Below, piece by piece: positions 4,152-49,300 of a DNA stretch of 64,000 nt. The first letter of the stretch is position 1, and every line of letters begins with the position of its first letter. The DNA is from Candidatus Buchananbacteria bacterium RIFCSPLOWO2_01_FULL_39_33 (GTDB taxonomy: Bacteria > Patescibacteriota > Patescibacteriia > 2-01-FULL-39-33), in NCBI GenBank assembly GCA_001817505.1, contig MHIM01000028.1, positions 383 through 64,382 on the forward strand, given 5' to 3'. A model generated the notes under the pieces. The model was given only the letters and a program-made list of their open reading frames with translations, did not search any database and was not told the DNA's origin. Both the position numbers and the translations under genes were made by a program.

Positions 4152-5123
4152 TTATTTCTTTCCTAATTCCCCGATAATGTAATCTATCCAATTTTGATAC
4201 CAATACCAAGTTTTCACAACCATAGTACCAAAACCCTTGCTCATATTTTTACCGTCATGTTTTCTCCAAAATTGAGTGTGTTGATACATTCCGAAATTCT
4301 TAAAACCTGCCTCCTTAACTTTTTGAATTACCAGCGTTGCGGTAAATTTTTGTTTTTCCGTTTCTTCTTTTATCCAGTATTCTTTTGAAATATTTTTTGC
4401 CAAATCGGATTTTGGATCAATAAATTCAATGACTCTATCCGCTTGTCCTTTACGTTTTGCTAAAACTTTTGCGAACAAAAGACGATAGGCAAACCTATCA
4501 CTTTTTGCTTCGTTTTCGGACAACTTACTATCAAAATCGGCAACATAAGAAATAACATTTTGAGGAATAAAACCTTCTTTATCTTTAATAACTTTTGATT
4601 GTGAATGGTCTAGTTCGGAGAATTGTAAACTCAACGCCAAATTGTTATCAAGACCATATTTTTCTCCGTGCAGTTTTTTGAGATAGAAGTTCAAGTTCAA
4701 TGCACATGCTTGATAACGAGCAGACAAATAAGAATCTAACCCACTGGCTTTCCGGTGCTCAATCTGGTTACGCAACCCAATTAAAAAGTTTAAGTTGTTC
4801 ACGGTGTCCCTATCGAGTGGACAGTCAGATTTTGAGATACACTCTCTCAAATCCCAATATTTAATACTCCCGTCAGGATTTTTAACATATTTTTTACGAC
4901 TACCGCTTTTTGTAAAATATCGATAATCTACCCCTTTTTCTCTATAGTGGGCGTGCAGAAGATATGTCCAAGCAATAAGTGAGAGCACAATAAAGCTCTC
5001 GGTTTTAAAGTAAATGAGTGGATTGTTATAAATTTGAACAGCCGAAAGCATGGCCTCGCGGGCTTTCATTATTAAATCAACTTTTTCAGAGTAAATAGTT
5101 CTGGTCATAGTTCTTGTGGACAA
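4152..5123 (-). CDS. Hypothetical protein with a HEPN-like Rx4-6H motif; possible Abi-family (AbiD/F, Abi_2-like) abortive-infection protein.
   Basis: Contains LIGLRNQIEHRK (R-N-x-x-x-H), resembling the RNxxAH signature of Abi_2/HEPN proteins. The 323-aa size is in range. It is transcribed divergently from the R-M methyltransferase. The functional call is inference. Confidence 0.4.
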   Translation of the reverse strand: MSTRTMTRTIYSEKVDLIMKAREAMLSAVQIYNNPLIYFKTESFIVLSLIAWTYLLHAHYREKGVDYRYFTKSGSRKKYVKNPDGSIKYWDLRECISKSDCPLDRDTVNNLNFLIGLRNQIEHRKASGLDSYLSARYQACALNLNFYLKKLHGEKYGLDNNLALSLQFSELDHSQSKVIKDKEGFIPQNVISYVADFDSKLSENEAKSDRFAYRLLFAKVLAKRKGQADRVIEFIDPKSDLAKNISKEYWIKEETEKQKFTATLVIQKVKEAGFKNFGMYQHTQFWRKHDGKNMSKGFGTMVVKTWYWYQNWIDYIIGELGKK

Positions 5124-5165
5124 ATCCCACTTCTTTTTATATAGGTATCATACTATAATATACAT

Positions 5166-6263
5166 ATGGCAAGCAACCAAATCTTCAAAGCAGTCTATTT
5201 TTCTGACTACAAGGAAACAAACCCAAAAGCAAAGGGTGTTGTCTTGGCTTTTGGTGAGAGAAATATAGATTTATACAAAAGCGTAGCCGGTCTTGGGAGT
5301 AATGAATTACGCAACTTACTCGGAACTGACTCCTATCTTGAGCTAGAGCAACGCGCGCAACAAGAGGGTTTGCCGGTAAACACTTACTGCCTTTGGTATT
5401 TGCGAAAAAATCTCGGCGCGGAAGAAGTAAAACCGAAAAAGGCAAAGATTAGCGAAAGGGCAATCTCTCACTTTATAAATCAGGTCATTAAGGGAGACTG
5501 TTTGGAAGTGATGAGAGAAATTCCAGCAAAATCGATAGATATGATTTTGTGTGATCTACCTTATGGCACTACACAAAATCACTGGGACAGCGTTATCCCT
5601 ATTGATCAACTTTGGAGCCACTACGAACGTATTATAAAAGACAAGGGCGTTATAGCCCTCACAGGGCAAGGGCTCTTTACGGCGAATCTCATGCTATCTA
5701 ATCCAAGACTGTTTAAATACAAAATCACCTGGGTTAAATCAAAACCAACTAATTTTTTGAATGCCAAAAAGCAACCACTTCGCAAGCATGAAGATATTTG
5801 TATTTTTTATAAAAGCCAGCCCGCCTATAACCCACAGATGACCTACGGCGAACCCTACAACAAAGGTTTCAGGAAAGATCAATTTACTGGGAGTTATGGC
5901 GACTTCAAAACCGTTGAGGTAAAAAGCAATGGCGAGAGGTATCCTACTGATGTTATCTATTTCAAAACTGCCGAGAGCGAAGGCGAAGTTTATCATTCCA
6001 CACAAAAGCCAGTGGAACTTGGCCGTTATCTTATTTGTACCTTCACAAAAGAAGGAGATGTTGTCTTAGATAACACTTGCGGTAGCGGCAGTTTCCTTGT
6101 TTCGGCAGTTTTGGAGGGAAGGAAATTTATTGGAATTGAAAAAAACGAAGATGTTTATCTGTTCAAAAAACATAAAGTGGATTATATCGAAGTTTCCAAA
6201 AAGCGTATCGAAGAAGCCGAAGCTCAATACAAAGCAGAGAGCAACAAACTAAAGCTATTTTAG
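5166..6263 (+). CDS. DNA methyltransferase (amino-MTase, beta-class: motif IV before motif I; N6-adenine or N4-cytosine) with an extra N-terminal extension of about 100 aa.
   Basis: Motif IV appears as SIDMILCDLPYG (a D/S-PP-Y variant). Further downstream the HSTQKPVEL...DVVLDNTCGSGSF stretch matches motif I / AdoMet binding (FxGxG). This order is the beta-class arrangement seen in, for example, M.PvuII/M.RsrI-type enzymes. Confidence 0.85.
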   Translation: MASNQIFKAVYFSDYKETNPKAKGVVLAFGERNIDLYKSVAGLGSNELRNLLGTDSYLELEQRAQQEGLPVNTYCLWYLRKNLGAEEVKPKKAKISERAISHFINQVIKGDCLEVMREIPAKSIDMILCDLPYGTTQNHWDSVIPIDQLWSHYERIIKDKGVIALTGQGLFTANLMLSNPRLFKYKITWVKSKPTNFLNAKKQPLRKHEDICIFYKSQPAYNPQMTYGEPYNKGFRKDQFTGSYGDFKTVEVKSNGERYPTDVIYFKTAESEGEVYHSTQKPVELGRYLICTFTKEGDVVLDNTCGSGSFLVSAVLEGRKFIGIEKNEDVYLFKKHKVDYIEVSKKRIEEAEAQYKAESNKLKLF

Positions 6264-14016: not shown

Positions 14017-14970
14017 TTGAACGCCATGAAAAACCCCGAATTTCTCAAACAAAAATACGATCTCCATAACAGCCCCGAGGCGGCTTCAGCCGCTAAGAGC
14101 AGCGAGGTTGCTATCGGCCGGAAGGTTCCTCAAAATCCCGAGGCGCGCATTGAGAATTATCTCGCTCGCCTGGAACAGCTAGCTCTTGATCCTGAAAAAA
14201 AACAGGCCAGAAAAATGTTCGGCGGTGAGCCGCGGCCTCGCGCGCTCGCCATCCTGCGGGAAATGGTAATGGACAAGTATGTCAGACCAAATAAAGATAA
14301 GCTGGCTCAAGGCGCGGCACAAGTGGAAGAGCGCGCCGCCAGAGAACTAGGCATTGAGGCGCGCTATGGCCAAGAAGAACTGGCCGAGCGCGGAGAAATA
14401 GCCGTGGCGGACTTGGAAAAGTCCCTGGACAATTGGATCTTGTATCTTTCCGATTTGAATGAGCCATACCCTGTTTGGTTCAGGTATTATGCTTTTCGCA
14501 ATATTCTTGATCTGGGCGATTATGACAAGGACAAAGGCGAATTCACCAAGCGCTCAAAAGGCAGCACGCGTCTTTTTCCCGATATTGATCGCGGTGCTCT
14601 GGCCTATGTGGAGCAGATGATAGAAGCCTCACGCGATCCCAAAATGCTAGAACGGCTCATCGGCGCCCAGCAAACAGCGGCTCGAGGAGACATACCCGCC
14701 GATCAGCTCATCACCAAAGAAAAAGCCCAAAACTTCGCCCAACTCTCATTCGCCAAGCAATACGCCGAGGGTATCCGACAAGCCGGCGAGATTACACCGG
14801 AGATGAGGGCTGAAACTAAAGGTCAGTGGGTCAAATATCAGAAAGGCACCGATCCGACAGCTTTATGGGCCTCTTTGCAAAACAAGGGCACGGCTTGGTG
14901 CACCAAGGGCTTTGCCACGGCCGAGACCCAGCTCAAAGGCGGCGACTTCTATGTCTATTACACTCTTTGA
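14017..14970 (+). CDS. Hypothetical protein, likely co-transcribed with the DGR target gene
   Basis: ORF whose stop overlaps the next gene's ATG (14951) by 20 bp; no motif recognised. Confidence 0.5.
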   Translation: MNAMKNPEFLKQKYDLHNSPEAASAAKSSEVAIGRKVPQNPEARIENYLARLEQLALDPEKKQARKMFGGEPRPRALAILREMVMDKYVRPNKDKLAQGAAQVEERAARELGIEARYGQEELAERGEIAVADLEKSLDNWILYLSDLNEPYPVWFRYYAFRNILDLGDYDKDKGEFTKRSKGSTRLFPDIDRGALAYVEQMIEASRDPKMLERLIGAQQTAARGDIPADQLITKEKAQNFAQLSFAKQYAEGIRQAGEITPEMRAETKGQWVKYQKGTDPTALWASLQNKGTAWCTKGFATAETQLKGGDFYVYYTL

Positions 14971-15943
14971 TCGCCAAGGTCAGCCCACTATTCCCCGCAT
15001 TGCCATCCGTCTGCAAGGCTCCAATATCGGAGAGGTGCGCGGCGTGGCCGATAATGATCAGAATCTGGAAGGCAATATGGCTACTATCGCCGAAGAAAAA
15101 CTCAAGGAATTTCCTGACAGCCAGCAATATGAGAAGAAAACTCAAGACATGAAACTGCTGACTGCCATTGAAAAGAAAACCAAAAACAACGAACCACTGA
15201 CCAGAAACGAACTGATCTTTCTCTACGAGATCAACTCCAAAATAGAGGGCTTCGGCTATCAAGACGATCCGCGCATCAAGGAAATCCGCGAAACCAGAAA
15301 AGTCGAAAAGGACGCATCAATTATTTTTGAATGTGAACAATCGCAAATCGCTTATGACGAGAAAGACGTCACTGAAAACACACAAGCATACATTGGAAAA
15401 TGGAACATCAAAATCTTCCAGAAAATCAGAAACTATCCGAACATCAAACATCTTTTTGAATCATTTCCGGACAAAAAAATATTCATGGAAACTCTGGAAA
15501 CTGACCCGAGTATCAATTCTCCTGAATCCGCCGAAGAAGCAATGAAAAGAAAAAAGATCTATTATTCCGATTGGGGTAAAGACATTCTTTACAAAACAGA
15601 ATTCAGTGAAGAAAAACAGTCCTATGATTTAGTGAGATTTTCCGTAGAACAACTTGGATTTCCCAAGGGTGCGACTACGCAAGAAATATACGATAAAGCG
15701 GAAAAATTAGGATTGGAACTTTGCCCGGCAGAAGTTGGTCCGCATTTGCGTTTGCAATATCCAGGCAAAGAATGGATGTTAATTGCGATGAAACAAATTC
15801 CTGACCGCTATGACTCTCCGGCTGTGTTCCTCCTGGGCACTTATGGTGGACAGCTCGTACTCTACGGCTACGATGCCAAGCCTTCGAGCAGGTGGTGTAC
15901 TGACGATGAGTTTGTTTTCCGCGTCCGCAAGTTTAAAACTTAG
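14951..15943 (+). CDS. DGR variable (target) protein; its C-terminal 42 codons form the variable repeat (VR)
   Basis: The last 127 bp of the gene (15801-15927) match the downstream template repeat, except at positions where the TR has adenine. Confidence 0.7.
   Translation: MSITLFDRQGQPTIPRIAIRLQGSNIGEVRGVADNDQNLEGNMATIAEEKLKEFPDSQQYEKKTQDMKLLTAIEKKTKNNEPLTRNELIFLYEINSKIEGFGYQDDPRIKEIRETRKVEKDASIIFECEQSQIAYDEKDVTENTQAYIGKWNIKIFQKIRNYPNIKHLFESFPDKKIFMETLETDPSINSPESAEEAMKRKKIYYSDWGKDILYKTEFSEEKQSYDLVRFSVEQLGFPKGATTQEIYDKAEKLGLELCPAEVGPHLRLQYPGKEWMLIAMKQIPDRYDSPAVFLLGTYGGQLVLYGYDAKPSSRWCTDDEFVFRVRKFKT
15801..15927 (+). repeat. DGR variable repeat (VR)
   Basis: 127-bp alignment to the TR at 16270-16396 shows 19 mismatches, every one at a TR adenine. 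The last 28 bp before the repeat end (ending gtttgttttccgcgtccg) are identical, an IMH-like region. Confidence 0.85.
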
Positions 15944-16269
15944 AAATTTTTTCACTTTTAATTTTTTGACGTTTTGAAGTTTTGTTTCTTTGATACTTTT
16001 CCGCCGTAGGCGGTCGACACAATTTTTTGGTATAATATATTCAGTTTGATTTATCGGACGGTTACGGCTTTCCGAAATCTTTCCGGCAAATGCGTATTGA
16101 GAGCGCAAGCGGTCAAGGCTTCTTGCGGAGTGGTTTGTATTTTGTCTTCAAAAAGAAATTTACTTGGTATGCGGCGCTGGTGGATTTTAGATCCCAAATA
16201 ATATACAGCTTGTGGTCTTCTGCTTTGTGGATTACTCAGGCAGTGTCAAAGATGGCCCCGCATATATTA

Positions 16270-16396
16270 CTGACCGCAATGACAATCCGAATGTGTTCAA
16301 CCTGAGCACTAATGGTGAACAGCTCGAACTCAACGGCAACAATGCCAAGCCTTCGAACAGGTGGAATACTGACAATAAGTTTGTTTTCCGCGTCCG
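16270..16396 (+). repeat. DGR template repeat (TR)
   Basis: Same 127-bp unit as the VR, with A at all variable positions. TR Asn codons AAC/AAT correspond to Y/S/A/L/G/V/Y/Y/D/S/C/D/E codons in the VR. Not protein-coding, although it appears as ORF 16212..16400. Confidence 0.85.
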
Positions 16397-16419
16397 TTAG
16401 TCAATTCTTTTTCCGCGTT

Positions 16420-16818
16420 TCACAAATCGCGGTTTTTCTTATCAGGATTTTTAAAACTATTCCGCCAGCCGCCCAGCATCCGACCGGTTTCTTCAAGCTT
16501 CAAAGACACAATTTCGCAGTGCCTATGGGAAATCAACTTGCCTTCCCAAGCCACGGAAACCAAGAATTTTAATGTATCTAAAATGAGAATGCAATTGGCA
16601 ATTTTCTCCGCCTTTTTCTCTTTCTCGGTAAAATATGCGTTATATGACAGTTCCAGCAGATCAAGAAATTTATTTTCAATCCGAGTTCTAATAGTGTAAC
16701 GGGCTCCTTTAGCAATATGAGGCATAATATCAACCCAAATCAAATATCCCTCTTCGATTCTATTGAGAATAGAGGCGTTATCGAGAGAGAGAGAGAGAGT
16801 AGAATTCGGCCGTGTCAT
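16420..16818 (-). CDS. avd: DGR accessory variability determinant (Avd)
   Basis: About 133 aa taken from the internal Met. The C-terminus ...HRHCEIVSLKLEETGRMLGGWRNSFK parallels Bordetella phage Avd ...QVETAQVLIAEVGRILGSWIARV. It lies on the opposite strand from the RT, TR and VR. Confidence 0.7.
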   Translation of the reverse strand: MTRPNSTLSLSLDNASILNRIEEGYLIWVDIMPHIAKGARYTIRTRIENKFLDLLELSYNAYFTEKEKKAEKIANCILILDTLKFLVSVAWEGKLISHRHCEIVSLKLEETGRMLGGWRNSFKNPDKKNRDL

Positions 16819-17796
16819 ATTTATAATGATATCATTTCTGTGGAAAATTTGCTTGCCGCCTGGCGAGAATTTCTGCGCGGCAAGCGGCATCGCCAAGATG
16901 TGGCGTTATTTTCGCTCCATTTAACTGATAATATTTTATTATTACAGCGTGAACTTGCAAACAGAACTTACCGGCATGGTCCATATCGCGCTTTCAAAAT
17001 CAATGATCCGAAACCGCGTCATATTCACAAAGCGAGTGTCCGTGATCGACTAGTCCATCACGTTATTTATCGGGTTTTATATCCATATTTTGATTCGAAG
17101 TTTATTTTTGATTCATTTTCGTGCCGTCGCGGCAAGGGGACGCACCGAGCAATGAATAGATTTCAGCAGTATGGCCGGCAGGTATCGCGCAATAATACTC
17201 GGACGGCCTGGATTTTGAAAGGCGATATCAGGAAATTTTTCGCCAGCATTGACCATAAGATTCTGCGCGACATTTTATCGCGGCAAATCAGAGATAATGA
17301 CGTTGTTCGGCTCTTGGGCGAAGTGATCGGAAGTTTCCAGACCAAAGACAAACCCAATATCGGTCTGCCGCTCGGCAATCTGACCAGCCAACTCTTAGTG
17401 AATATTTATCTGAATGAATTCGATTATTTCATTAAGAGAAAATTGAAAATTGCATATTATGTCCGTTATGCCGATGACTTCGTGATTATATCGGACGATA
17501 AACGATGGTTAGCAAACCAAATCAGGCCAATCAGCGATTTTTTGTTTAATAATTTGCAACTTCAGCTTCACTCCGATAAGGTTTTTATTAAGAGTTTGGC
17601 GTCCGGCGTTGATTTCCTCGGCTGGGTGCATTTCCCGCGCCATCGCGTACTAAGAACAGCGACGAAAAGAAGGATGTTAAAAAGAATCATTGAAAATCCC
17701 AAACCTGAGTCGGTGAATTTGTATTTGGGATTGATCAGTCATGGCAATAGCTATAAACTGCGAGAGAGAATTGCCAATTTATGCGATTTTTGCTAA
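16717..17796 (+). CDS. DGR-type reverse transcriptase
   Basis: LGNLTSQ matches the DGR hallmark [I/L]GxxxSQ (group II RTs have QGxxxSP instead). YVRYADDFVII is the catalytic YxDD motif. N-terminal ENLLAAWREFLRGKRHR parallels Brt ENLLDAYRKTSHGKRR. The probable true start is GTG at 16840, which would remove the overlap with avd. Confidence 0.9.
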   Translation: MRHNINPNQISLFDSIENRGVIERERESRIRPCHIYNDIISVENLLAAWREFLRGKRHRQDVALFSLHLTDNILLLQRELANRTYRHGPYRAFKINDPKPRHIHKASVRDRLVHHVIYRVLYPYFDSKFIFDSFSCRRGKGTHRAMNRFQQYGRQVSRNNTRTAWILKGDIRKFFASIDHKILRDILSRQIRDNDVVRLLGEVIGSFQTKDKPNIGLPLGNLTSQLLVNIYLNEFDYFIKRKLKIAYYVRYADDFVIISDDKRWLANQIRPISDFLFNNLQLQLHSDKVFIKSLASGVDFLGWVHFPRHRVLRTATKRRMLKRIIENPKPESVNLYLGLISHGNSYKLRERIANLCDFC

Positions 17797-21659: not shown

Positions 21660-21685
21660 AAAAACAGCGAAAGCTGTTTTTTGGT
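21660..21685. terminator. Bidirectional terminator hairpin
   Basis: aaaaaacagc-gaa-agctgtttttt. Confidence 0.5.
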
Positions 21686-21970
21686 GCTCCATTCTTAAAA
21701 TAGTTCGAACGCATTTCGCCGCCGGCGGCGGCGAGGAAGCCCCCCGCAAAAATGAACGGCTTCGCCGCGAACCGGACAATTTCAAGTTTTTGAATGATTT
21801 AAGTATAAATCATTCCAGTAAATTTTTCAATGAAAATGATTGAAAAATTTAATGCCTTGGCGGCAAATTCTTTTATGAAAATTCAATCCCAAAATTTGAT
21901 AAAGAAAAAGGGCTCCGAGCAGAACTGGTGTCTGTAAGGAGCCCCATTGTCGGCGGAACTTCGTTCGCCG

Positions 21971-22681
21971 TTAGCCGAGAGACAAAAGCGTGGGGTTGAG
22001 CACGCCGCCGGACTCGTTGGCCTTCTCGCCCTCGTTCCCGATCTGGGTCTTGAGGTTGTGCCAACGCCGAAGTCGGTCGCCGTGCTTCCAGCAGGCCGCG
22101 AGTGTCGAGACAGCACATTCGTACATGAAGCCCGTGATGCCCTCGAGGTTGGCCTCGTGATATGCGGCGTCCGCCACATCTTCGAGGTTTTTCCCGTTGG
22201 CCATCTCGACCTGCATGAGGCGTGCCCACCGTTCCGAGTAGGTGACCACCGCACCGCCGTAACCGTCCGTGTTCATGTCCTTGAACTTCTGCCAGCCGGC
22301 TTCGTCGGCGAGCTCAATGGTGGGGGCGTTGGCCAACTTGGCCTCGACCTTCTCGCGATGAGCACGAGCTTTCTTCTCGTACTCCACCTGCCGCTTCTGC
22401 CGCTTACGCTCGTTCTTGGCTTCGATGCGCGCGTCTTTCGCCTTGTCTTCGGCCGTGAGTTCGGCTTTCGGATAGGGTCCGACCTCGCCCTCGATGTAGC
22501 CCGATTGGGCGCGCTGTTGGTCACGGAAGATGAGTTCGGCATTGGAAGTGCCGTTCACCAGCACCGTGACGCCGTTGAGCTCCTGCTTCGCCGTGAAGTT
22601 GCCTTCCTTGGCGAGTCCGATCATCTCCCTGATGGTGTCGACGATGAGGCTGTTGTAGACGTTCGTCTCTTTGGTCTTCAT
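21971..22681 (-). CDS. Hypothetical protein encoded in a high-GC (about 60%) island; likely horizontally acquired
   Basis: The 236-aa ORF has GC-rich third codon positions. A perfect AGGAGG lies 7 nt upstream of the ATG. The composition contrasts sharply with flanking DNA of about 35-38% GC. The + strand ORFs in this interval look like antisense artefacts. Confidence 0.6.
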   Translation of the reverse strand: MKTKETNVYNSLIVDTIREMIGLAKEGNFTAKQELNGVTVLVNGTSNAELIFRDQQRAQSGYIEGEVGPYPKAELTAEDKAKDARIEAKNERKRQKRQVEYEKKARAHREKVEAKLANAPTIELADEAGWQKFKDMNTDGYGGAVVTYSERWARLMQVEMANGKNLEDVADAAYHEANLEGITGFMYECAVSTLAACWKHGDRLRRWHNLKTQIGNEGEKANESGGVLNPTLLSLG

Positions 22682-22752
22682 GCTTCTGTCCTCCTTTCAA
22701 GGTATGGTTTGATTCCATCTAGGTACTATACCCAGATTTCAATCTATCCTAG

Positions 22753-22790
22753 CATACCAGACCATAAAAGTCAAGAGGCGGCAAGCACCG
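22753..22790. terminator. Perfect 12-bp-stem hairpin flanked by A/T runs
   Basis: aaaa-gtcaagaggcgg-caagca-ccgcctcttgac-tttt. Confidence 0.55.
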
Positions 22791-22809
22791 CCTCTTGACT
22801 TTTCCTACG

Positions 22810-22894
22810 TGGTGCCGAAGGAGAGAATCGAACTCTCACATCTTGCGATACACGATTTTGAGTCGTGCGCGTCTACCAATTCCGCCACTTCGGC
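22810..22894 (-). tRNA. tRNA-Leu (anticodon CAA), class II with long variable arm, CCA encoded
   Basis: Reverse complement reads GCCGAAGUGGCGGAAUUGGUAGACGCGCACGACUCAAAAUCGUG...GAGAGUUCGAUUCUCUCCUUCGGCACCA. Confidence 0.85.
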
Positions 22895-22980
22895 CTACTA
22901 TCAACAATTAACTTTTAACATTTAACTATTAACAAAATTGTTAAATATTAATTATTAATAGTTAACAGTTATTATCGTAG

Positions 22981-23130
22981 CAGGGGCCGGAGTTGAATCG
23001 GGTTGTTTCTGGACAACGCTGAATGCCTGCTTGCCGGTAGATAGGCTTGTATTTGCTCGTTTTCATTGACACTCATCTTCGCTAATGCTCGTTTCGTTTC
23101 CGTCCTCGCCTATTTGATATTAAGTAAGTT
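22981..23130 (-). other. Degenerate tRNA-derived element E0: 3' T-arm/acceptor copy of tRNA-Met(A) attached to unrelated sequence
   Basis: The minus-strand 3' end ...CCCGAUUCAACUCCGGCCCCUGC closely matches the 3' end of the tRNA at 23166-23237, but its T-stem is broken. Confidence 0.3.
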
Positions 23131-23165
23131 AATAGTTAACTGTTAATTGTTTATTGTTAACCCTG

Positions 23166-23237
23166 TAGCAGGGGCCGGAGTTGAACCGGCGACCAATGGC
23201 TTATGAGTCCACTGCTCTACCACTGAGCTACCCTGCC
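23166..23237 (-). tRNA. tRNA with CAU anticodon (Met or lysidine-Ile2); no encoded CCA
   Basis: Reverse complement reads GGCAGGGUAGCUCAGUGGUAGAGCAGUGGACUCAUAAGCCAUUGGUCGCCGGUUCAACUCCGGCCCCUGCU. Anticodon loop is CUCAUAA; G1.U72 wobble. Confidence 0.75.
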
Positions 23238-23260
23238 GTGATTTAATCTTTCTAAGTTGT

Positions 23261-23395
23261 TAATCCACTGCTCTTCCAGGGCAGCGCCAGATGCTCGCGC
23301 TTGCTCGCATCTGTCGGCGTCTCAGCTTCGCCTTCGGCTCGCTTCACTGCTGCCCGTCGCTTCGCGACCCACTAAGCTACCCTGCCAGAAAATAA
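23261..23395 (-). other. Element E1: the first 18 nt of tRNA-Met(A) (acceptor and D-arm) fused to a roughly 98-nt GC-rich insertion, truncated after an anticodon-stem-like segment
   Basis: Minus strand reads GGCAGGGUAGCUUAGUGG + GC-rich 98 nt + AGAGCAGUGGA, then diverges. Confidence 0.3.
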
Positions 23396-23490
23396 TTTTC
23401 AATTTTCAATTTTTAAATAATTTAAAAATGATTAATTTAAAAATTAAATCATTGTTTAGAAATTAGAAATTAGAAATTTTAAAATTAGTA

Positions 23491-23600
23491 TCTGTTGCGG
23501 GGGTGGGATTCTTGTCCTGGGCAGCGTCCAGTCCTGCGCCAGCTCGGACTGGCCGACGCTCGTCTTCGCCTCGCTTCTGCCCGTGCGAATCCTCTCCTGA
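23491..23600 (-). other. Element E2: GC-rich sequence ending in a copy of the 3' T-arm/acceptor of the tRNA at 23651-23722
   Basis: The + strand begins tgttgcgggggtgggattc, identical to the first 19 nt of the tRNA at 23651 onward, then continues as GC-rich sequence (cttgtcctgggcagcgtccagtcctgcgcc...). Confidence 0.3.
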
Positions 23601-23650
23601 AAATAATTCATTATTAACCAAATAGGCATCTTGATTATCCGAAATTTTTG

Positions 23651-23722
23651 TTGCGGGGGTGGGATTCGCACCCACGACCTCCAGGTTATGGGCCTGGCGA
23701 GCTGCTACTGCTCTACCCCGCA
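23651..23722 (-). tRNA. tRNA with CAU anticodon (elongator Met or Ile2); atypical D-loop and T-loop; no encoded CCA
   Basis: Reverse complement reads UGCGGGGUAGAGCAGUAGCAGCUCGCCAGGCCCAUAACCUGGAGGUCGUGGGUGCGAAUCCCACCCCCGCAA. Anticodon loop is CCCAUAA; U1-A72 pair. Confidence 0.6.
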
Positions 23723-43399: not shown

Positions 43400-46300
43400 A
43401 TGTTTGGGCTGCGACTTTTACCTATGCAGAAGTCAAGAATCGCCAAAAAAGTGCTATTGGCCAGCTTTTTGGCGATTTTTTTATTGATGATTCTACCCCA
43501 AGCCGGCTGGGCTCAAGTCACCGATAGCCGCTTTGGCTTAAGTGAAGCGTCAACTATTGGCCTGCCCCAAACTAATCTAATAACAGCCATTGTCAGAATC
43601 GTCCAGCTGCTCTTGGGTTTCTTAGGAATTATAGCGGTTATCATGGTGCTTTACGGCGGTTTTGTCTGGATGACTTCCGGCGGCGACCCGGCTAAAATTG
43701 AGAAAGCCAAAAAAATACTGATTAATACAATTATTGGTATAATTATCATCCTGTCATCATACATTATCACCGCTTTTATTATCAGGGCGTTGATGGGCTG
43801 GGGCGGCGGCGGTTGGGGGGATGGCGGCGGTGGCACTGATGATTTTGGCCGCTGGGGCATCGGTGTTGGTCCGATTGAAAGCGTTTATCCGGCGCCCGGA
43901 CAGGTTGATGTGCCGATTAATACGATAATCGCTGTCACTTTTAAAGAAAAGATCAATCCCCAGACAATCTGCGGCAGCTCGGCTTGCGATGGCCAAACCA
44001 AAATGGCCAATGTGGAAATTTGCCAGATTGACGATCATGGCGTTTGTGTTGATGAAGAAGAAGAATTTTCAACCAATGATTTCACTGACAGTTTGGTCAA
44101 AAGCGATGATAACCGAACCTTTACCATCATTCCCAATAAATATCTGGGACTGGAAGATTTCCAAGACCGGAGATTCAAGGTTGTTTTGCAATCAGGCATA
44201 GAAACTTTAGCCGAACCGGGTAAGTCGGTCTTCAACAGCTTGGTTGATAAAGAATACGCCTGGCAATTTATAACTAACGGCGAATTAGATCTTGATCCGC
44301 CAGAGATTATTGACTTAGTCGGCGTTTATCCTTATCCGGATGATGAGATTGATACTTATGGCATCTCGGCTGGACCGACTGCCACTAAATTTTTCGTCAG
44401 CTTAGAGGCCGATACTATCAAGAAAGAAATTCTATCAGCTTTTGACGCTACTGCTACCAAAGGAGCTGGGACTACTATAACTGGAACACTGACCGGGAAT
44501 TACGGCGGTACAGCTACCGGAGTGGCGACAGTTAGAATTGATTCCGGTACCGGAGAAGTAAAGACCACTTGGCCCGGTGAGATGGGAACATTTAATAGCG
44601 GTCAGTTTGATCCCACCGGCGCTACTTTAAATATCGGTCCCTATGGTTTGGTTTTCAATGTCAGCGGCGTAGTGGCTCGCGGCAATTCCTGGACTTTTAA
44701 TGTTGTCTCTCATCAAGTCGGCGATAAATTGGAAATAAAGTATAATAATGGCGTTATTAAGACCTATATTTTTGGCACTGATATCGCCGAGCCCGATGAT
44801 TTTGCCGATAAATTAATTGCTGATACCAATATATTTTCCGCTTGCGGAACTTATTGCCTCCAAACCAAGCAAACCGGTGTTGCTACCGCCAAGTATGATC
44901 TTAGTTATGTGGGCAGTGGCACTTTTACCATCACTAAAACCAATGGCCAGGATGAACAGCCCAACAGGCAGCCAAATGGTCAGCGCGATGTTTACCGCAA
45001 TACCATTATCCAGATTAATTTTAATGAGGCCATTAATCCCACAGCCGTCAAAGACAATATATTTATTATGAGAAGTGATCGGCTGATTGATTATGATATT
45101 CAAATATCCAACCAATATAAAACTCTGGAATTAGTCGCTTTGGAGCAATGCGGTCTAAACAGTTGCGGCGACGCCATATTTTGCTGGCCGATTGAAGGCA
45201 ATGCCCAAAAATACGCTATTAGAATCACAGCCGCGACCCTGATGTCTAAGAGCGATACTAAATGCTCGGCTTGGGGCGGAATTGACGACGGTCATGACCG
45301 TTGCGTTAAAGATGTTAATGGAGTGAAGGTTTTTTATCCTCTGGCTCCGACTGGTGATGGCCTGGTTGATATGAGCTTTAATTCTTTTAACGGCAGTTTC
45401 AATACTTATCTGAATAATGATAAAAATATTGGTCTAGCTGAAGGCAAGTCAGGAAATGGCAATAATCACTCTGGCCGACCGCATTATAATCTTAATTCAG
45501 GTATAAGCTGCGTTTTAGATGATGTTGCCGTCAATTGCGGCACGGCCAACTCCCGAGTAACCAGTTATGGCAATTCTACCCCGGTCTACGGAGTCAGCGG
45601 TTTTGGCGATGATTTTATTTGGTCTTTCTTCATTTCCAGTGAAATTGACAAGCAGGCGCCGCTGATTAAAACCGATTCGCCAGTGGGCGATGAAGATATA
45701 AATACTGCCACCGGCGATGTTGAATTTTATTTTGACCGCTTAATGCGCAGTTCAACCTTAAAGCCGGGCTGGAATTACGGTTCACTGGCTAAGGAAAAAT
45801 CAATTCGCTATCTTATTTTACAGACCATAACCGATAGCGCCTTGCCAGTCGGCTATTGGGCGCTCAAAGTTGACCAAGATGATAATTTTGACGGCTGGGC
45901 TGATTACACTTTGGCTAAATTACACCATAATGATTTTGATAGCGCGGTCAAATACGGACCCTTGGGCGGTTCGGGCTTGCAGTCAATAACCCAAAATTGC
46001 TTTTTACCCAGCGCCGGTCCCAAAGAAGCTGCCAGATCAGGCCAAGAGTGCGCTTATAACGGCGACGCCTTAGCTGCTGATTGCGCCGAAGTGGTCTCAA
46101 CTAATCCCGCTTCCTATGGCTATTTGAATTGTAATGAAATAACCGGTGCTAGCGAATGCGCCTATACCTGCAAAGTTTTGTATTATGATGCCAATAACAC
46201 CACCACTGATTTAGGCGGCAGCTGGGTCTTGACCAAAGATCACCCGACGGCGGTTAACGGCCAAACCGGCTGCTGTTTTGGCCTTTGCGTGGAAGAATAA
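43400..46300 (+). CDS. Large secreted surface protein (966 aa) with an N-terminal VirB2/TrbC-pilin-like domain, a Gly-rich linker, beta-rich Ig-like region and Cys-rich C-terminus
   Basis: A signal peptide (cleavage after AGWAQ) is followed by two hydrophobic helices with a short loop (IVRIVQLLLGFLGIIAVIMVLYGGFVWMTSGGDPAKIEKAKK). The pattern parallels VirB2 ICTFILGPFGQSLAVLGIVAIGISWMFG. A GWGGGGWGDGGGG linker follows. Confidence 0.8.
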   Translation: MFGLRLLPMQKSRIAKKVLLASFLAIFLLMILPQAGWAQVTDSRFGLSEASTIGLPQTNLITAIVRIVQLLLGFLGIIAVIMVLYGGFVWMTSGGDPAKIEKAKKILINTIIGIIIILSSYIITAFIIRALMGWGGGGWGDGGGGTDDFGRWGIGVGPIESVYPAPGQVDVPINTIIAVTFKEKINPQTICGSSACDGQTKMANVEICQIDDHGVCVDEEEEFSTNDFTDSLVKSDDNRTFTIIPNKYLGLEDFQDRRFKVVLQSGIETLAEPGKSVFNSLVDKEYAWQFITNGELDLDPPEIIDLVGVYPYPDDEIDTYGISAGPTATKFFVSLEADTIKKEILSAFDATATKGAGTTITGTLTGNYGGTATGVATVRIDSGTGEVKTTWPGEMGTFNSGQFDPTGATLNIGPYGLVFNVSGVVARGNSWTFNVVSHQVGDKLEIKYNNGVIKTYIFGTDIAEPDDFADKLIADTNIFSACGTYCLQTKQTGVATAKYDLSYVGSGTFTITKTNGQDEQPNRQPNGQRDVYRNTIIQINFNEAINPTAVKDNIFIMRSDRLIDYDIQISNQYKTLELVALEQCGLNSCGDAIFCWPIEGNAQKYAIRITAATLMSKSDTKCSAWGGIDDGHDRCVKDVNGVKVFYPLAPTGDGLVDMSFNSFNGSFNTYLNNDKNIGLAEGKSGNGNNHSGRPHYNLNSGISCVLDDVAVNCGTANSRVTSYGNSTPVYGVSGFGDDFIWSFFISSEIDKQAPLIKTDSPVGDEDINTATGDVEFYFDRLMRSSTLKPGWNYGSLAKEKSIRYLILQTITDSALPVGYWALKVDQDDNFDGWADYTLAKLHHNDFDSAVKYGPLGGSGLQSITQNCFLPSAGPKEAARSGQECAYNGDALAADCAEVVSTNPASYGYLNCNEITGASECAYTCKVLYYDANNTTTDLGGSWVLTKDHPTAVNGQTGCCFGLCVEE

Positions 46301-46320
46301 TTTTGAGCTAATTATTAACC

Positions 46321-49300
46321 ATGACAATAAAAGTTCCAATTAAAAAAATAATTCCATTGCTGATTATTATGGCAGTTTTAATCGGAGTTTTTAGTTATGT
46401 TAATTTGTCTTTAGCCCAGACCGACCGGTTTGGTTTGGAAAATGCCGCCGGCATCGGTTTGGCCCAGACCGATTTGAGAATTGCTATTATAAATATTATC
46501 AGGTTTATTCTGGGTTTTTTAGGCCTGGCGGCGGTTATCATCATCCTTTATGGCGGCTATCTTTGGCTGACGGCTGATGGCAACCCCAATAAAATTGAAA
46601 AAGCCAAGAAAACTTTGATTTCTGCCGTTATCGGCTTGATCATTATTTTATCAGCTTTTATTATTGCTTCGTTTATTATCAATGCGCTTATCGGCGCTCT
46701 GTGTGTGGGCGATGAATGTCCCACTGATACCTGCCCGGTTCCGCCTTGCACACCAACTTGCCCGGTTCCGCCTTGCACACCCAATAGCTCCAATCAATAC
46801 GCTTATATCAACAAGCTAAAAGATAATGCCTTGTCTTGGTCCAGAATACTTGGTTATGGCTTTACCGGCGTAGCTAAAATGCCGGGCAGCGCGACGCTGG
46901 AAGTCGGCGGTTATGCCAAGAATAAAGACAGCACTATTAATGGTCTGGATCTTTATACCGCTCTTTCAGGCGAGACCTTTGCTTTGCAAAGCCAGTTTGC
47001 TAATGTGCCGGCTAATGTGGCCATTGTTGATAATGTTTATGCCCCTTGGAATTCCTCGGCTTATGCCATTAACAGCGAATATCAAGCCAAGATTAATGCT
47101 TTGTTTCCTAATGACTCGCATGTTGAATCGCACACTCTTAAGACCATCGTTAAGCCGCTTCATTGCTTTAACAATATTCAGGATGAAGGTGAAACCGGAG
47201 TTGATTGCGGCGGCGATGAGGCGGTTTTAGGCGATGATTATTGCGGCGCTTGTGAAGGCGGCACTTGCACCACTGATAGCGATTGCTCTACCGGCGTTTG
47301 CCTGGATGGCGTTTGCGCTTTTAGTCCTATTATTTCCAGCTTGGAACCCAATAACGGAGCCCAGGGAAATTACATCACTATCTGGGGCAAATATTTTGGC
47401 GCTACGCCGGGATCGGTGATGCTGACTAAAGACGGACAAACCAGTGTTTTTGCCAACTTAGATTTGGCTGATGGCTGTGATAATACTTGGACTGATACCC
47501 AGATTATTTTTGAAGTGCCCGAAGTGGCCTTGCAGACCTATAATGTCATCGTGGAAAACAGCGTCGGTTTGACCAGCAATCCCAAGGATTTTGAGGTTAA
47601 TGACACAGTGCGCCCGGGCATTTGCGGAGTCAATCCCGAGTCCGGACTTAATCCGGACCCGATAGAAATCGTCGGTAATAATTTTCCGACAGCGCCAAAC
47701 GGCCAAGTTTATTGGAGTTTTAAACCGGATAATTTCTCCAGTCCCAATGTGGTTTGGCTGGATGATAACCGCGCCAGCGATATCGTGCCCGAGAGCGGAG
47801 TCGGCCAGACCAGCATCAGGGTTTATAACAGCGCCGAATACAGCAATTATTATAATTTTTTAATTAGCGGCGGCGGCTTGGGCGAACCCTGCGGCGACTC
47901 TAATGCGACTATCTGCTCCGCCGCTAATATCTGTCAGAGCGGGCTTTTCTGCGACCCTAACGCCGGCTGTACTTGCCAGGTGATTACTAATCCTTGCACG
48001 CCCGGTTCTGCCCGGAGTTGCGAGATTCCTGATAATACTTGCGCTGCCACTGAAGTTTGTCCGACTAGCGGCAACTGGGATGATGCCGTTTGCACCCAGA
48101 CCGATCTGACTTGCATCTCGGGTTTGACGGTAGAACCGGCCACCCAATCGCTTTATGCCTGGGCTTTTACTTTTGGCAATGGTTACGGTTTTGAGGCGCC
48201 GGCCGTGATTGAAGATTGCAGCCGCATCAGGACTTGTTCTCCCGATCAGAAATTGCCCAGTCCGGCTCCCTGGTATGAAGGCGAGGGAGCGGTTGAGGGC
48301 TGGGATAGCGCTATTTCCCGAAATTCTTCTTTATATATTCAGGATCCTAAGGCCTGCGTCAATGCCACGGTTTCAGCCAGATTCACTGAAAAAATGGACG
48401 TCCAGTCGGTTAAAGACCATGTTAAATTTTTTAAGTGCGCTGACCGAGGCGGCACCAATTGCCAAGCGGTGGCCGGTAACGGTAACCTTGAGGTCTATCC
48501 GACTGATGACGGCGTCAGGGATTATTTTATTTTGCGGAATCCGGTTTTGGAAGATAACGCTTGGTATAAAGTCGTCTTAACCGATGGCCTGCGCAGTTAT
48601 CTTAATGTGGAAATGGCAACCAGCACCAAAGTCATTGCCGATCGTTTTTGCAATGTGACGTCTTATGAAGGCAACAACATCAGTAACGCGGTTTATTGCT
48701 GGAATTTCCAAACCCGGAAATCGGATCAGTATTGCGAGCCCGGCTGTCCGGAGTGCAACCCCGATCCCAAGACGATGAATTATTATTATCAAACGCAGTT
48801 ATTTTCCACCAATGTAGTCAGTGAGGATAATGTCTGTTTAATGATTGATCCTTGGGCTTATAATTGGGGTTGGTCGTCTAAAGATATTAGCAAAGTGACT
48901 ATAACCAATAATGATTTGTACAAATATGATCCCGGTACGACTAACCGGAATTTAACGGCCGGCAGTGATGACAAGGTTGATCCCGAACAGACCGGCACGG
49001 CTAGGGGTGAAAATTATAACATCGCTCCTGAATTCCACACTAAAGTTTTCAGCGAACTCACTCAGACCGGCCAGAATGATTATTGCCGGGTAATTACCGA
49101 TTTTACCAATCCGGTGGTGATGGAAAATTCCTCTTGTTCTTTCGGCACTATTCAAAGCCCGACTCCCTGGATTAATTCTAAGGATGCTTGTCGCAACGCT
49201 TTGATTGCCGCCCGCTTCAGCCGTGATATGCATGATGATAGTTTAACCTTAAATACCAGAACCAATCTCCGGCTAGGCAGTAGCAACACCACTGGCAACA

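Follow-up and report, generated by a model that had tools for sequence, protein, structure and literature searches.

A horizontally acquired, GC-rich 1.1-kb island of Candidatus Buchananbacteria with a Tad4-like gene next to tRNA-Leu(CAA)

Patescibacteria are ultrasmall episymbionts with tiny genomes and few known defences. Islands that target tRNA genes, together with their integrase-less derivatives, the cis-mobilizable elements (CIMEs), are a known class in the biology of integrative and conjugative elements (ICEs) and CIMEs. Tad4 is a phage inhibitor of type I Thoeris, reportedly first described by Yirmiya et al. (Cell 2025). It is described as belonging to a group of several phage proteins that attach directly to the TIR protein ThsB, where a flexible loop blocks the NAD+-processing active site (PMC13402655; bioRxiv 10.64898/2026.01.28.702374; supplement of the EVADES preprint, 10.1101/2025.06.06.658234). 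This study concerns a 64,000-nt stretch of the chromosome of Candidatus Buchananbacteria bacterium RIFCSPLOWO2_01_FULL_39_33 (contig MHIM01000028.1, positions 383 to 64,382; hereafter the window), in which a GC-rich patch at about 21682-22809 is a foreign, horizontally acquired 1.1-kb island. It adjoins the 3′ end of a tRNA-Leu(CAA) gene and holds a single gene, on the minus strand, for a 236-aa protein whose C-terminal domain is, judged by its sequence, a Tad4 family member. The locus departs from the described Tad4 family in being chromosomal, two-domain and carried on a tRNA-anchored single-gene island; no published description of Tad4-like or anti-defence genes in Patescibacterial chromosomes was found.

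The composition of the island sets it apart from its surroundings. In particular, the GC content is 0.565-0.625 across 21900-22700, compared with 0.36-0.41 on the low-coordinate side (200-nt windows) and a mean of about 0.42 for the whole 64 kb, which bears out the jump described in a first-pass annotation of the window. The 236-aa open reading frame (ORF) that it placed at 21971..22681 of the minus strand is present, and the foreign codon usage that it ascribed to this ORF is real: the coding sequence (CDS) has an overall GC content of 60% and a GC content at third codon positions (GC3) of 0.82, with G and C both raised (G3 0.35, C3 0.47), compared with 0.44 ± 0.053 for 42 other window ORFs (range 0.29-0.57; z = 7.2 for the island CDS). 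The GC-rich zone is confined to the CDS, and its own leader and promoter have a GC content of about 40%.

Related genomes (compared loci are denoted by L numbers) record the gain of the island. In a related Buchananbacteria genome (L126, GCA_030650095.1), whose flanks are 74-82% identical to those of the window, the site is empty: about 70 bp separate the neighbouring 166-aa gene from tRNA-Leu(CAA), compared with 1,209 bp in the window. The two marks of a tRNA-targeted island, insertion at a tRNA 3′ end and an unoccupied site in a relative, were therefore both found. A further Buchananbacteria species (L128-130) carries at this position an ORF of 208/223 aa that is unrelated to the island gene (4813-5439 in L128 and 4813-5484 in L129, minus strand), which is mildly GC-raised (41-51%) and has no Pfam or PADLOC match. 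Moreover, a distant host (L196-199), whose protein identity to the window is 47.8% for TopA and 46.9% for DprA, shares with it 1,020 bp (21684-22703) at 91.6% identity, comprising the ribosome binding site (RBS), CDS, terminator, spacer and a backbone element; in L196/L199 the cassette lies directly 3′ of tRNA-Leu(CAA), in the same orientation as in the window. For this pair, the synonymous divergence (dS) is 0.29 and the ratio of nonsynonymous to synonymous divergence (dN/dS, ω) is 0.21; over the 287 non-coding nucleotides the identity reaches 94.8%. The blastn similarity to L196 ends at 21684, and the island is placed at about 21682-22809 because similarity ends at a GCACCA hexamer shared with the end of tRNA-Leu. 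The closest relatives of the island-lineage protein (82-88% identity) reside in other low-GC Patescibacteria; since the nearest relatives, non-coding backbone included, are Patescibacterial, the immediate donor was probably another Patescibacterium or a circulating element. The features of the island, from low to high coordinates, are as follows.

21682..21687, boundary repeat at the distal end, TGGTGC, which reads GCACCA on the gene strand, the same hexamer as the tRNA-Leu 3′ end at 22810-22815
21685..21800, minus strand, backbone element of about 116 nt, GC-rich, ending in ...GGAGCACCA, with a cloverleaf-like consensus fold
21801..21899, minus strand, AT-rich spacer with short 18-nt repeats (repeat family D3, inverted repeat I14)
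21900..21968, minus strand, predicted intrinsic terminator of the cassette, with a small hairpin at about 21951-21968, the main hairpin at 21910-21944 and a T-run
21971..22681, minus strand, CDS of 236 aa, stop codon at 21971-21973
21974-22321, minus strand, part of the CDS, Tad4-family helical domain (aa 121-236)
22322-22456, minus strand, part of the CDS, long helix (aa 76-120)
22457-22681, minus strand, part of the CDS, N-terminal α/β domain (aa 1-75)
22682..22745, minus strand, 5′ leader of type i, with a hairpin at about 22711-22744 (-16.5 kcal/mol, z = -2.7)
22690..22695, minus strand, Shine-Dalgarno AGGAGG, 8 nt from the ATG; GGAGG/AGGAG in homologous cassettes
22746..22774, minus strand, sigma-70-type promoter predicted from sequence, TTGACT-17-TAGGAT with an upstream TG
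22766..22803, minus strand, perfect 16-bp hairpin directly 3′ of tRNA-Leu (inverted repeat I13, 100% complementary)
22810..22894, minus strand, tRNA-Leu(CAA) (ARAGORN and Rfam), the integration target or anchor, at whose 3′ end the island starts

The cassette thus appears to be a complete expression unit, with a constitutive-looking promoter, a structured leader, a strong RBS, the CDS and an intrinsic terminator. The main terminator hairpin (GGGCTCC...GGAGCCC; inverted repeat I23) has a folding energy of -27.7 kcal/mol (z = -3.57); the terminator is kept in L002, L003, L005, L006 and L007, and its small hairpin shows compensatory changes, as does the leader hairpin when compared with L006. The promoter (CTTGAC/TAGGAT-TAGAAT) is kept in L002, L003, L004, L006, L007, L132 and L133. 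The perfect hairpin next to tRNA-Leu folds with -29.2 kcal/mol (z = -7.5), its descending arm holds the -35 box, and it recurs in L006, there downstream of tRNA-Val; it is likely the terminator of the tRNA operon. The first-pass annotation was right about the AGGAGG RBS and its spacing and about an adjacent tRNA cluster, which consists of tRNA-Leu(CAA) and two tRNA-Met genes spanning 22810-23722 (ARAGORN, Rfam). Its pair of bracketing hairpins needs revision: the upstream one exists, but at 22766-22803 instead of 22753-22790; the one at 21660-21685 sits outside the island on the host backbone; and the CDS's own terminator (21910-21944 plus T-run, z = -3.6) was missing from its list.

The backbone element is seen only at islands linked to tRNA-Leu(CAA), namely in the window lineage (21685-21800, minus strand), in L196-199 (5881-5996 in L196; nhmmer E = 1.5e-28) and in L128-130 (4617-4759 in L128; E = 3.9e-10). 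Since L128-130 carry a different cargo, the element belongs to the tRNA-Leu integration site and not to the cargo. Its outer stem shows three compensatory pairs, from three sequences only, and together with its surroundings (at the 94.8% given above) it is better conserved between distant hosts than the synonymous sites of the cargo gene. In L128, the insert ends with this element followed by a degenerate copy, about 70 nt long, of the 3′ half of tRNA-Leu, at the distal end, which looks like a classic scar of integration into a tRNA gene; the only att-like repeat of the window is the 6-nt TGGTGC. No Rfam family was found for the leader, the backbone element or the CDS.

Further observations concern the surroundings of this site. 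The L128-130 occupant was considered as a diverged, ameliorated homologue of the 236-aa protein and rejected, with no similarity (E > 1) and no Pfam match; it may be a further cargo of the same mini-island system. The tRNA cluster holds partial tRNA copies at 22895-23650. For example, 22976-23001 repeats the 3′ end of tRNA-Met (23165-23237) as a 24/25-nt copy and follows a copy of that tRNA's own AT-rich spacer, and 23257-23278 resembles the D/anticodon region of the same tRNA-Met; the spacing between the Leu and Met tRNAs is 14 nt in L128 and 270 nt in the window. These partial copies look like scars of more integration or rearrangement events at the same hotspot.

The first-pass annotation saw no recognisable motifs in the 236-aa protein, which profile searches contradict. 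Pfam PF25186 (‘Type I Thoeris inhibitor Tad4’) matches residues 124-223 with 100.4 bits against a cutoff of 25 (E = 9.5e-29) over profile positions 3-105 of 113, the isolated C-terminal half gives the same result, and the protein also matches phrog_9822 (E = 8.7e-32). Homologues from cultured phages (Bacillus Bastille/Bcp1-like phages, Mycobacterium phage Kumao and Xanthomonas phage Xoo-sp15) are about 105 aa long and cover the C-terminal half only, at 40-46% identity. Across 19 aligned Patescibacterial, viral and Clostridia sequences, 23 columns are invariant, and the invariant motifs common to phage and Patescibacterial forms are RWA--M, EGITGFMYG-AV, W-HG--L--WHN and NPA. The AlphaFold model (predicted local distance difference test score, pLDDT, 93.3) has an α/β domain at aa 1-70, a single long helix at 77-116 and a bundle of helices at 127-224, with conserved loops and a conserved C-terminal tail (aa 225-236) of lower confidence; among viral structure predictions, its fold matches the Kumao protein (E = 1e-9). 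Searches of the PDB with the 236-aa protein found no match in sequence or in fold. For the N-terminal half, Pfam, PHROG and a tblastn search of phages all gave no match, and in a profile-free exhaustive search it occurs only within the same family (215 representatives). Matches in BFVD to phage proteins of 56-75 aa probably align to this N-terminal domain, although the output does not display the aligned region. Two giant repeat proteins of about 4.5 kaa were rejected as relatives of the domain; their scores are artefacts because each sums about 40 weak matches of 5-7 bits. Both domains are under purifying selection (dN/dS 0.14-0.5 among homologues), and the protein has no obvious signal peptide when its sequence is read by eye.

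Overall, 968 homologues of the 236-aa protein were found at E < 1e-3. The two-domain form occurs in metagenome-assembled genomes (MAGs) labelled Saccharibacteria, Parcubacteria, Gracilibacteria and Kerfeld-, Moranii-, Nomura-, Komeili- and Wolfebacteria, and two-domain relatives are also found on genuine phage contigs (e.g. L038). When hosts whose flanks are unrelated are compared, nucleotide similarity extends over the promoter (CTTGAC-17-TAGGAT/TAGAAT), leader, CDS and terminator and ends there. There are at least three leader types, which are mosaic relative to the CDS tree: the window combines an L006-type leader with an L003-type CDS, and since its leader type is shared with L006 and not with its closest CDS relatives, leader and CDS have recombined. 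Likewise, L002 has the AbiU2 flank seen in L136/L140, but a window-type allele. A tRNA gene lies within 1 kb of the cassette at about 12 of about 36 distinct loci, mostly directly upstream and in the same orientation, compared with a rough expectation of about 10%; the neighbours are otherwise diverse housekeeping genes. The window gene itself sits in a housekeeping chromosomal region, with no phage genes among the 30 ORFs scanned, and its neighbouring proteins assign the organism to the Candidatus Buchananbacteria (Patescibacteria) of groundwater MAGs.

Some neighbourhoods of the cassette have their own features. In the Hainich-aquifer copies, it lies directly downstream of genes for an XRE-type helix-turn-helix (HTH) protein and the HEPN protein AbiU2 (abortive infection), a context limited to the Hainich sub-lineage (L136 61-1064, L140 63-1192, and upstream in L002). 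In L200 (363-1522), an analogous HTH gene and a gene for a 286-aa protein precede the cassette, and an IS200/IS605 Y1 transposase follows it; the 286-aa protein was considered as AbiU2 and is unrelated to it. In L193, a divergent tyrosine recombinase lies 300 bp upstream of the cassette.

Compared with phage Tad4, the C-terminal 113 residues of the island protein match at full length and with a high score, they share the invariant motifs and the helical bundle, and homologues are abundant on phage contigs. Unlike phage Tad4, which is a single domain of about 105-115 aa, the window gene is chromosomal and encodes 236 aa, which include a 40-residue helix and an additional N-terminal domain; moreover, it stands alone with its own promoter and terminator and no Thoeris/TIR partner nearby, and unlike the Bacillus-phage proteins it has an 8-residue insertion before the C-terminal NPA motif. 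With tRNA islands and CIMEs, the locus shares its position at a tRNA 3′ end, its foreign composition, an empty site in a sister species, cargo that varies at the same site and a partial tRNA direct repeat in a relative. It differs from them in its size (1.1 kb with one gene, without integrase, excisionase or transfer genes), in its 6-nt repeat and in the tRNA-like backbone element of about 116 nt that accompanies the site. Island transfer may use homologous anchors and natural transformation rather than a recombinase.

An integron gene cassette is a promoterless ORF with an attC site, located near intI/attI and usually in arrays. The island resembles one in being a single-gene mobile unit with swappable cargo at a fixed site, and L193 has its tyrosine recombinase upstream; unlike integron cassettes, it has its own conserved promoter, its 3′ structure is a terminator with a T-run, it is not part of an array, and a recombinase adjoins the cassette at one of about 36 loci only. 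No attC (R′′/L′′-L′/R′, GTTRRRY core) was recognised in the island by eye, with no dedicated model search made. Elements mobilised by IS200/IS605 (palindrome-associated transposable element (PATE)-like) have subterminal hairpins recognised by the Y1 transposase, with TnpA acting in cis or in trans. The cassette has hairpins at both ends, and a Y1_Tnp gene lies directly downstream in L200-L201; the scan of window ORFs found no TnpA, and only some of the cassette copies keep the end hairpins.

The GC contrast extends beyond the window. Gene GC exceeds flank GC in 34/34 GTDB genome loci, and the close relatives have GC3 values of 0.75-0.95 amid flanks of 0.32-0.52. Among metagenome copies that are ≥63% identical, 11 of 12 are raised by +0.05 to +0.30 above their flanks, seven of these by +0.21 to +0.30; for example, L137 has a GC3 of 0.93-0.95 among host genes at 0.27. 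On 80 viral contigs (30-68% GC), the gene matches its contig, with a mean difference of +0.009. The GC anomaly is a family-wide property and not specific to the window locus. Tad4-domain genes in gut Clostridia MAGs (L022, L024-L027, L031, L033-L035) are 9-24 GC points above their ~27%-GC flanks, with the exception of L035 (+5 points), and because these copies show the same excess, the pattern is not confined to Patescibacteria.

Acquired genes drift toward host composition (amelioration; the Lawrence and Ochman model), and the phylogeny of the family allows this drift to be followed. In a neighbour-joining (NJ) tree, the Patescibacterial clade is sister to L037-39, where a two-domain gene matches the GC content of its contig (68%), on which terminase and portal genes are also found. 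Deep nodes reconstruct at a GC3 of about 0.88-0.94, and long branches have decayed to host-like values (0.42 in L008 and 0.36 in L016). Judged by the tree, the viral GC match and the GC3 of the nodes, the history of the gene is best explained overall by descent from a high-GC phage and later amelioration. For the L138 and L012/13 lineages, the equilibrium GC3 (GC3*) derived from polarised synonymous changes is 0.38-0.39, compared with a host GC3 of 0.27-0.53 in most hosts and at most 0.66. As in the amelioration model, GC decay to the host is seen in L008, L016, L138 and the L012/13 lineages; unlike in the model, decay in the window and L140 subclades is much slower than a neutral prediction calibrated on neighbouring genes. 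With one syntenic pair, an NJ tree and parsimony as its basis, the conclusion that GC decay is slower than neutral in some lineages is held with moderate confidence, and the slowness could reflect compositional selection, local biased conversion or refreshment from an unsampled GC-rich pool.

Taken together, we favour with moderate confidence the reading that the locus is a mobile, integrase-less tRNA-Leu mini-island with a TIR-inhibitor-like two-domain Tad4 cassette of high-GC phage ancestry. Several observations weigh against it. The boundary repeat of the window has only 6 nt and could be due to chance, and no recombinase is present in the island, with its single 236-aa ORF, or among the 30 window ORFs scanned. 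The same 30 ORFs include no TIR, SIR2 or Thoeris gene, and among 136 neighbour proteins at 29 loci no TIR, integrase, transposase or other partner is enriched; further, the Tad4 proteins with tested activity are single-domain phage proteins. No relative ≥63% identical was found in a high-GC context, the closest GC-matched relative being about 55% identical. Moreover, the window subclade has a GC3* of 0.78 (0.69-0.85) and the L140 subclade one of 0.72 (0.64-0.79), compared with a host GC3 of 0.3-0.45. L136 and L140 form a syntenic pair in which AbiU2 and HTH, the genes that flank the cassette, have dS values of 0.59 and 0.79 at a GC3 of 0.25-0.35, whereas the cassette, with a dS of 0.53, has held its GC3 at 0.82-0.84. 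A two-state neutral model calibrated on these neighbours allows a maximum GC3 of 0.75 (0.67-0.81), even from an ancestor with GC3 = 1, which the observed cassette value of 0.82 (0.77-0.86) exceeds; differences between strong (G or C) and weak (A or T) bases in the cassette amount to 0.21, compared with a predicted 0.38.

These last values bear on a possible but doubtful alternative, in which high GC3 is actively maintained in Patescibacteria by selection on synonymous sites or composition (for example, for mRNA stability, protection from A/U-specific RNases or the avoidance of restriction) or by GC-biased gene conversion (gBGC) that is very local and tied to frequent recombination. The GC3* of both subclades, which parsimony bias would lower and not raise, the contrast between cassette and flanks in L136/L140 and the deficit of strong/weak differences all favour it, as do the coincidence of the GC-rich zone with the CDS beside conserved leaders of about 40% GC, the more stable folding of the CDS than of its shuffles (z = -2.9) and the HEPN AbiU2 RNase gene that adjoins the cassette in the Hainich loci. 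However, intact conserved homologues exist at a GC3 of 0.15-0.5 in phages and some Patescibacteria (L008, L016, L036), so that high GC is not needed for function, the two subclades with a GC3* of 0.38-0.39 ameliorate normally, and gBGC tracts are not expected to end at start and stop codons. The pattern also stems from one syntenic pair, with co-inheritance inferred from similar dS and confidence intervals that nearly touch (0.81 vs 0.77), from an NJ tree with short internal branches and from a fold z-score based on 20 shuffles. Alternatively, fresh copies might repeatedly be donated from a high-GC reservoir that has escaped sampling (a phage or bacterium with ≥65% GC), with their divergence accrued in the reservoir, a proposal that we regard as tentative. 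The extreme GC3 of L137 amid AT-rich host genes, the GC-favouring substitutions in two subclades, the sister lineage in a 68%-GC phage and the competence genes carried by Patescibacteria, including DprA in the window, are consistent with such a source. Yet all copies of ≥63% identity have flanks of ≤0.56 GC (GTDB genomes, JGI metagenomes, IMG/VR and the protein database). The GC-richest Patescibacterial hosts reach a GC3 of only 0.58-0.66, and GC-rich Patescibacteria were rejected as a compositional home for the gene because no host exceeds 0.66. Further, when the CDS moves from one low-GC host to another, AT-rich promoters, leaders and the tRNA-Leu backbone element accompany it, which indicates spread from one Patescibacterium to another.

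Other explanations concern the immediate donor and the reality of the locus. The first-pass annotation had suggested acquisition from a high-GC donor, for instance an actinobacterial host of an epibiont. Foreign, horizontal gain stands, and an ultimately high-GC origin is plausible, but a single recent import straight from such a host is improbable, even with the strong compositional contrast, the empty site in a sister species and the Tad4-domain homologue encoded by Mycobacterium phage Kumao. Homologues in actinobacterial phages are about 40% identical and cover the C-terminal domain only, no actinobacterial genome locus was recovered, and the closest relatives (82-88% in protein; 91.6% in nucleotides, including the non-coding backbone) are in low-GC Patescibacteria; homologues of similar GC in related low-GC genomes, which the annotation had named as evidence against its scenario, were found many times over. 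An actinobacterial immediate donor is largely refuted. The annotation had also asked that a chimera be excluded, in which a high-GC read cluster was mis-joined into a low-GC contig. Four contigs (L122-L125) do terminate at the island edge (21811-21955), and many homologues are on contigs of about 1 kb; assemblers tend to break at abrupt composition changes or strain variation. However, seven contigs from different sample or assembly accessions (ENA: ERZ4903185, ERZ4903055, ERZ27254845, ERZ4903125; JGI: 3300002502, 3300025323, 3300025317), up to 69 kb long, cover the island and both junctions with no CDS differences, an eighth, variant copy (L001) has one synonymous change, and the same junction type is found again in dozens of unrelated genomes, which leaves a chimera or contamination with a negligible probability. 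High within-population diversity of the CDS was ruled out by the same comparison; because there are no CDS differences, its earlier suspicion is an index artefact (the exact protein is indexed on one contig). It is also very unlikely that the real product is a structured non-coding RNA or the antisense ORF at 21947-22798 (plus strand, 283 aa). The antisense frame is open over the entire CDS, and the fold z-score of the CDS could point to a structured RNA, but the sense protein is conserved (dN/dS 0.14-0.5) with a Pfam domain and a confident fold, there is no Rfam match, and the in-register antisense frame has 1-3 stops in the close relatives L004, L133, L134 and L140. As these stops occur at the rate expected from codon usage, the antisense ORF was rejected as a real gene; it is a by-product of codon usage.

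Under the favoured reading of an integrase-less mini-island with a Tad4-like cassette, the 1.1 kb at about 21682-22809 would have been inserted at the tRNA-Leu(CAA) 3′ end of the Candidatus Buchananbacteria chromosome. From its family membership, the protein would most likely bind and silence a TIR-type NAD+-consuming immune enzyme, blocking signal production or NAD+ depletion, and the N-terminal α/β domain and long helix are probably an added interaction or oligomerisation module. The cassette would circulate horizontally among Patescibacteria, landing preferentially just 3′ of tRNA genes, with cargo and leader swapped by recombination. Transfer would most likely use the conserved tRNA and the backbone element of about 116 nt as recombination anchors, and DprA and competence-type genes are present; a trans-acting recombinase is an alternative route. 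The CDS would owe its GC-richness to the descent of the Patescibacterial clade from a gene of high-GC phages, and it would ameliorate to host composition in some lineages and more slowly than the neutral expectation in others. The beneficiary could be mobile DNA among Patescibacteria, the cell facing TIR/NADase attack or the episymbiont facing host immunity. A bolder version, to which we give little credence, is that Patescibacteria have domesticated a phage anti-TIR inhibitor, with selection on both protein and synonymous sites, and have spread it on integrase-less, tRNA-anchored single-gene cassettes; the protein would act against the TIR/NAD+ immunity of the host cell or of competitors and not in the service of a phage. 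Its GC-richness would then be functional, for example by making the mRNA refractory to A/U-specific defence RNases or by giving it codons that favour expression in or against a GC-rich partner.

Elsewhere in the window, a diversity-generating retroelement (DGR) lies at 14912-17796, with its variable repeat (VR) at 15797-15932, at the 3′ end of the ORF 14912-15943, its template repeat (TR) at 16266-16401 and its reverse transcriptase ORF at 16717-17796 (RVT_1); 20/22 TR/VR mismatches are at template adenines. Retroelements of this kind are already known from these bacteria. Beside it, the ORF 14017-14970 forms the second GC bump of the window (GC 0.53) and has no Pfam match. A DUF3644 protein (4152-5123, minus strand) adjoins an N6/N4 DNA methyltransferase (5166-6263, plus strand), and the two, at 4152-6263, may be a restriction-modification or defence pair. 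At 43400-56256, a 966-aa protein with T4SS-pilin and Big_5 domains is followed by a giant 3,311-aa ORF, which has no match to the N-terminal domain of the island protein (local phmmer); such large surface proteins are typical of Patescibacteria.

The locus is a clean natural example of apparently recombinase-less single-gene exchange at a tRNA anchor, with every stage of the series represented: the empty site, the filled site, another cargo in the same slot and the island's own cargo in a distant host. The foreign GC signature of its gene, which seems to outlast neutral amelioration, bears on the compositional dating of gene transfer. Earlier examples of anti-defence genes of this kind come from phages; here, a promoter-equipped, two-domain Tad4 relative is fixed and under purifying selection in many Patescibacterial chromosomes, which raises the question of whom a chromosomal TIR inhibitor would serve: mobile DNA, the cell against NADase toxins or the symbiont against its host.

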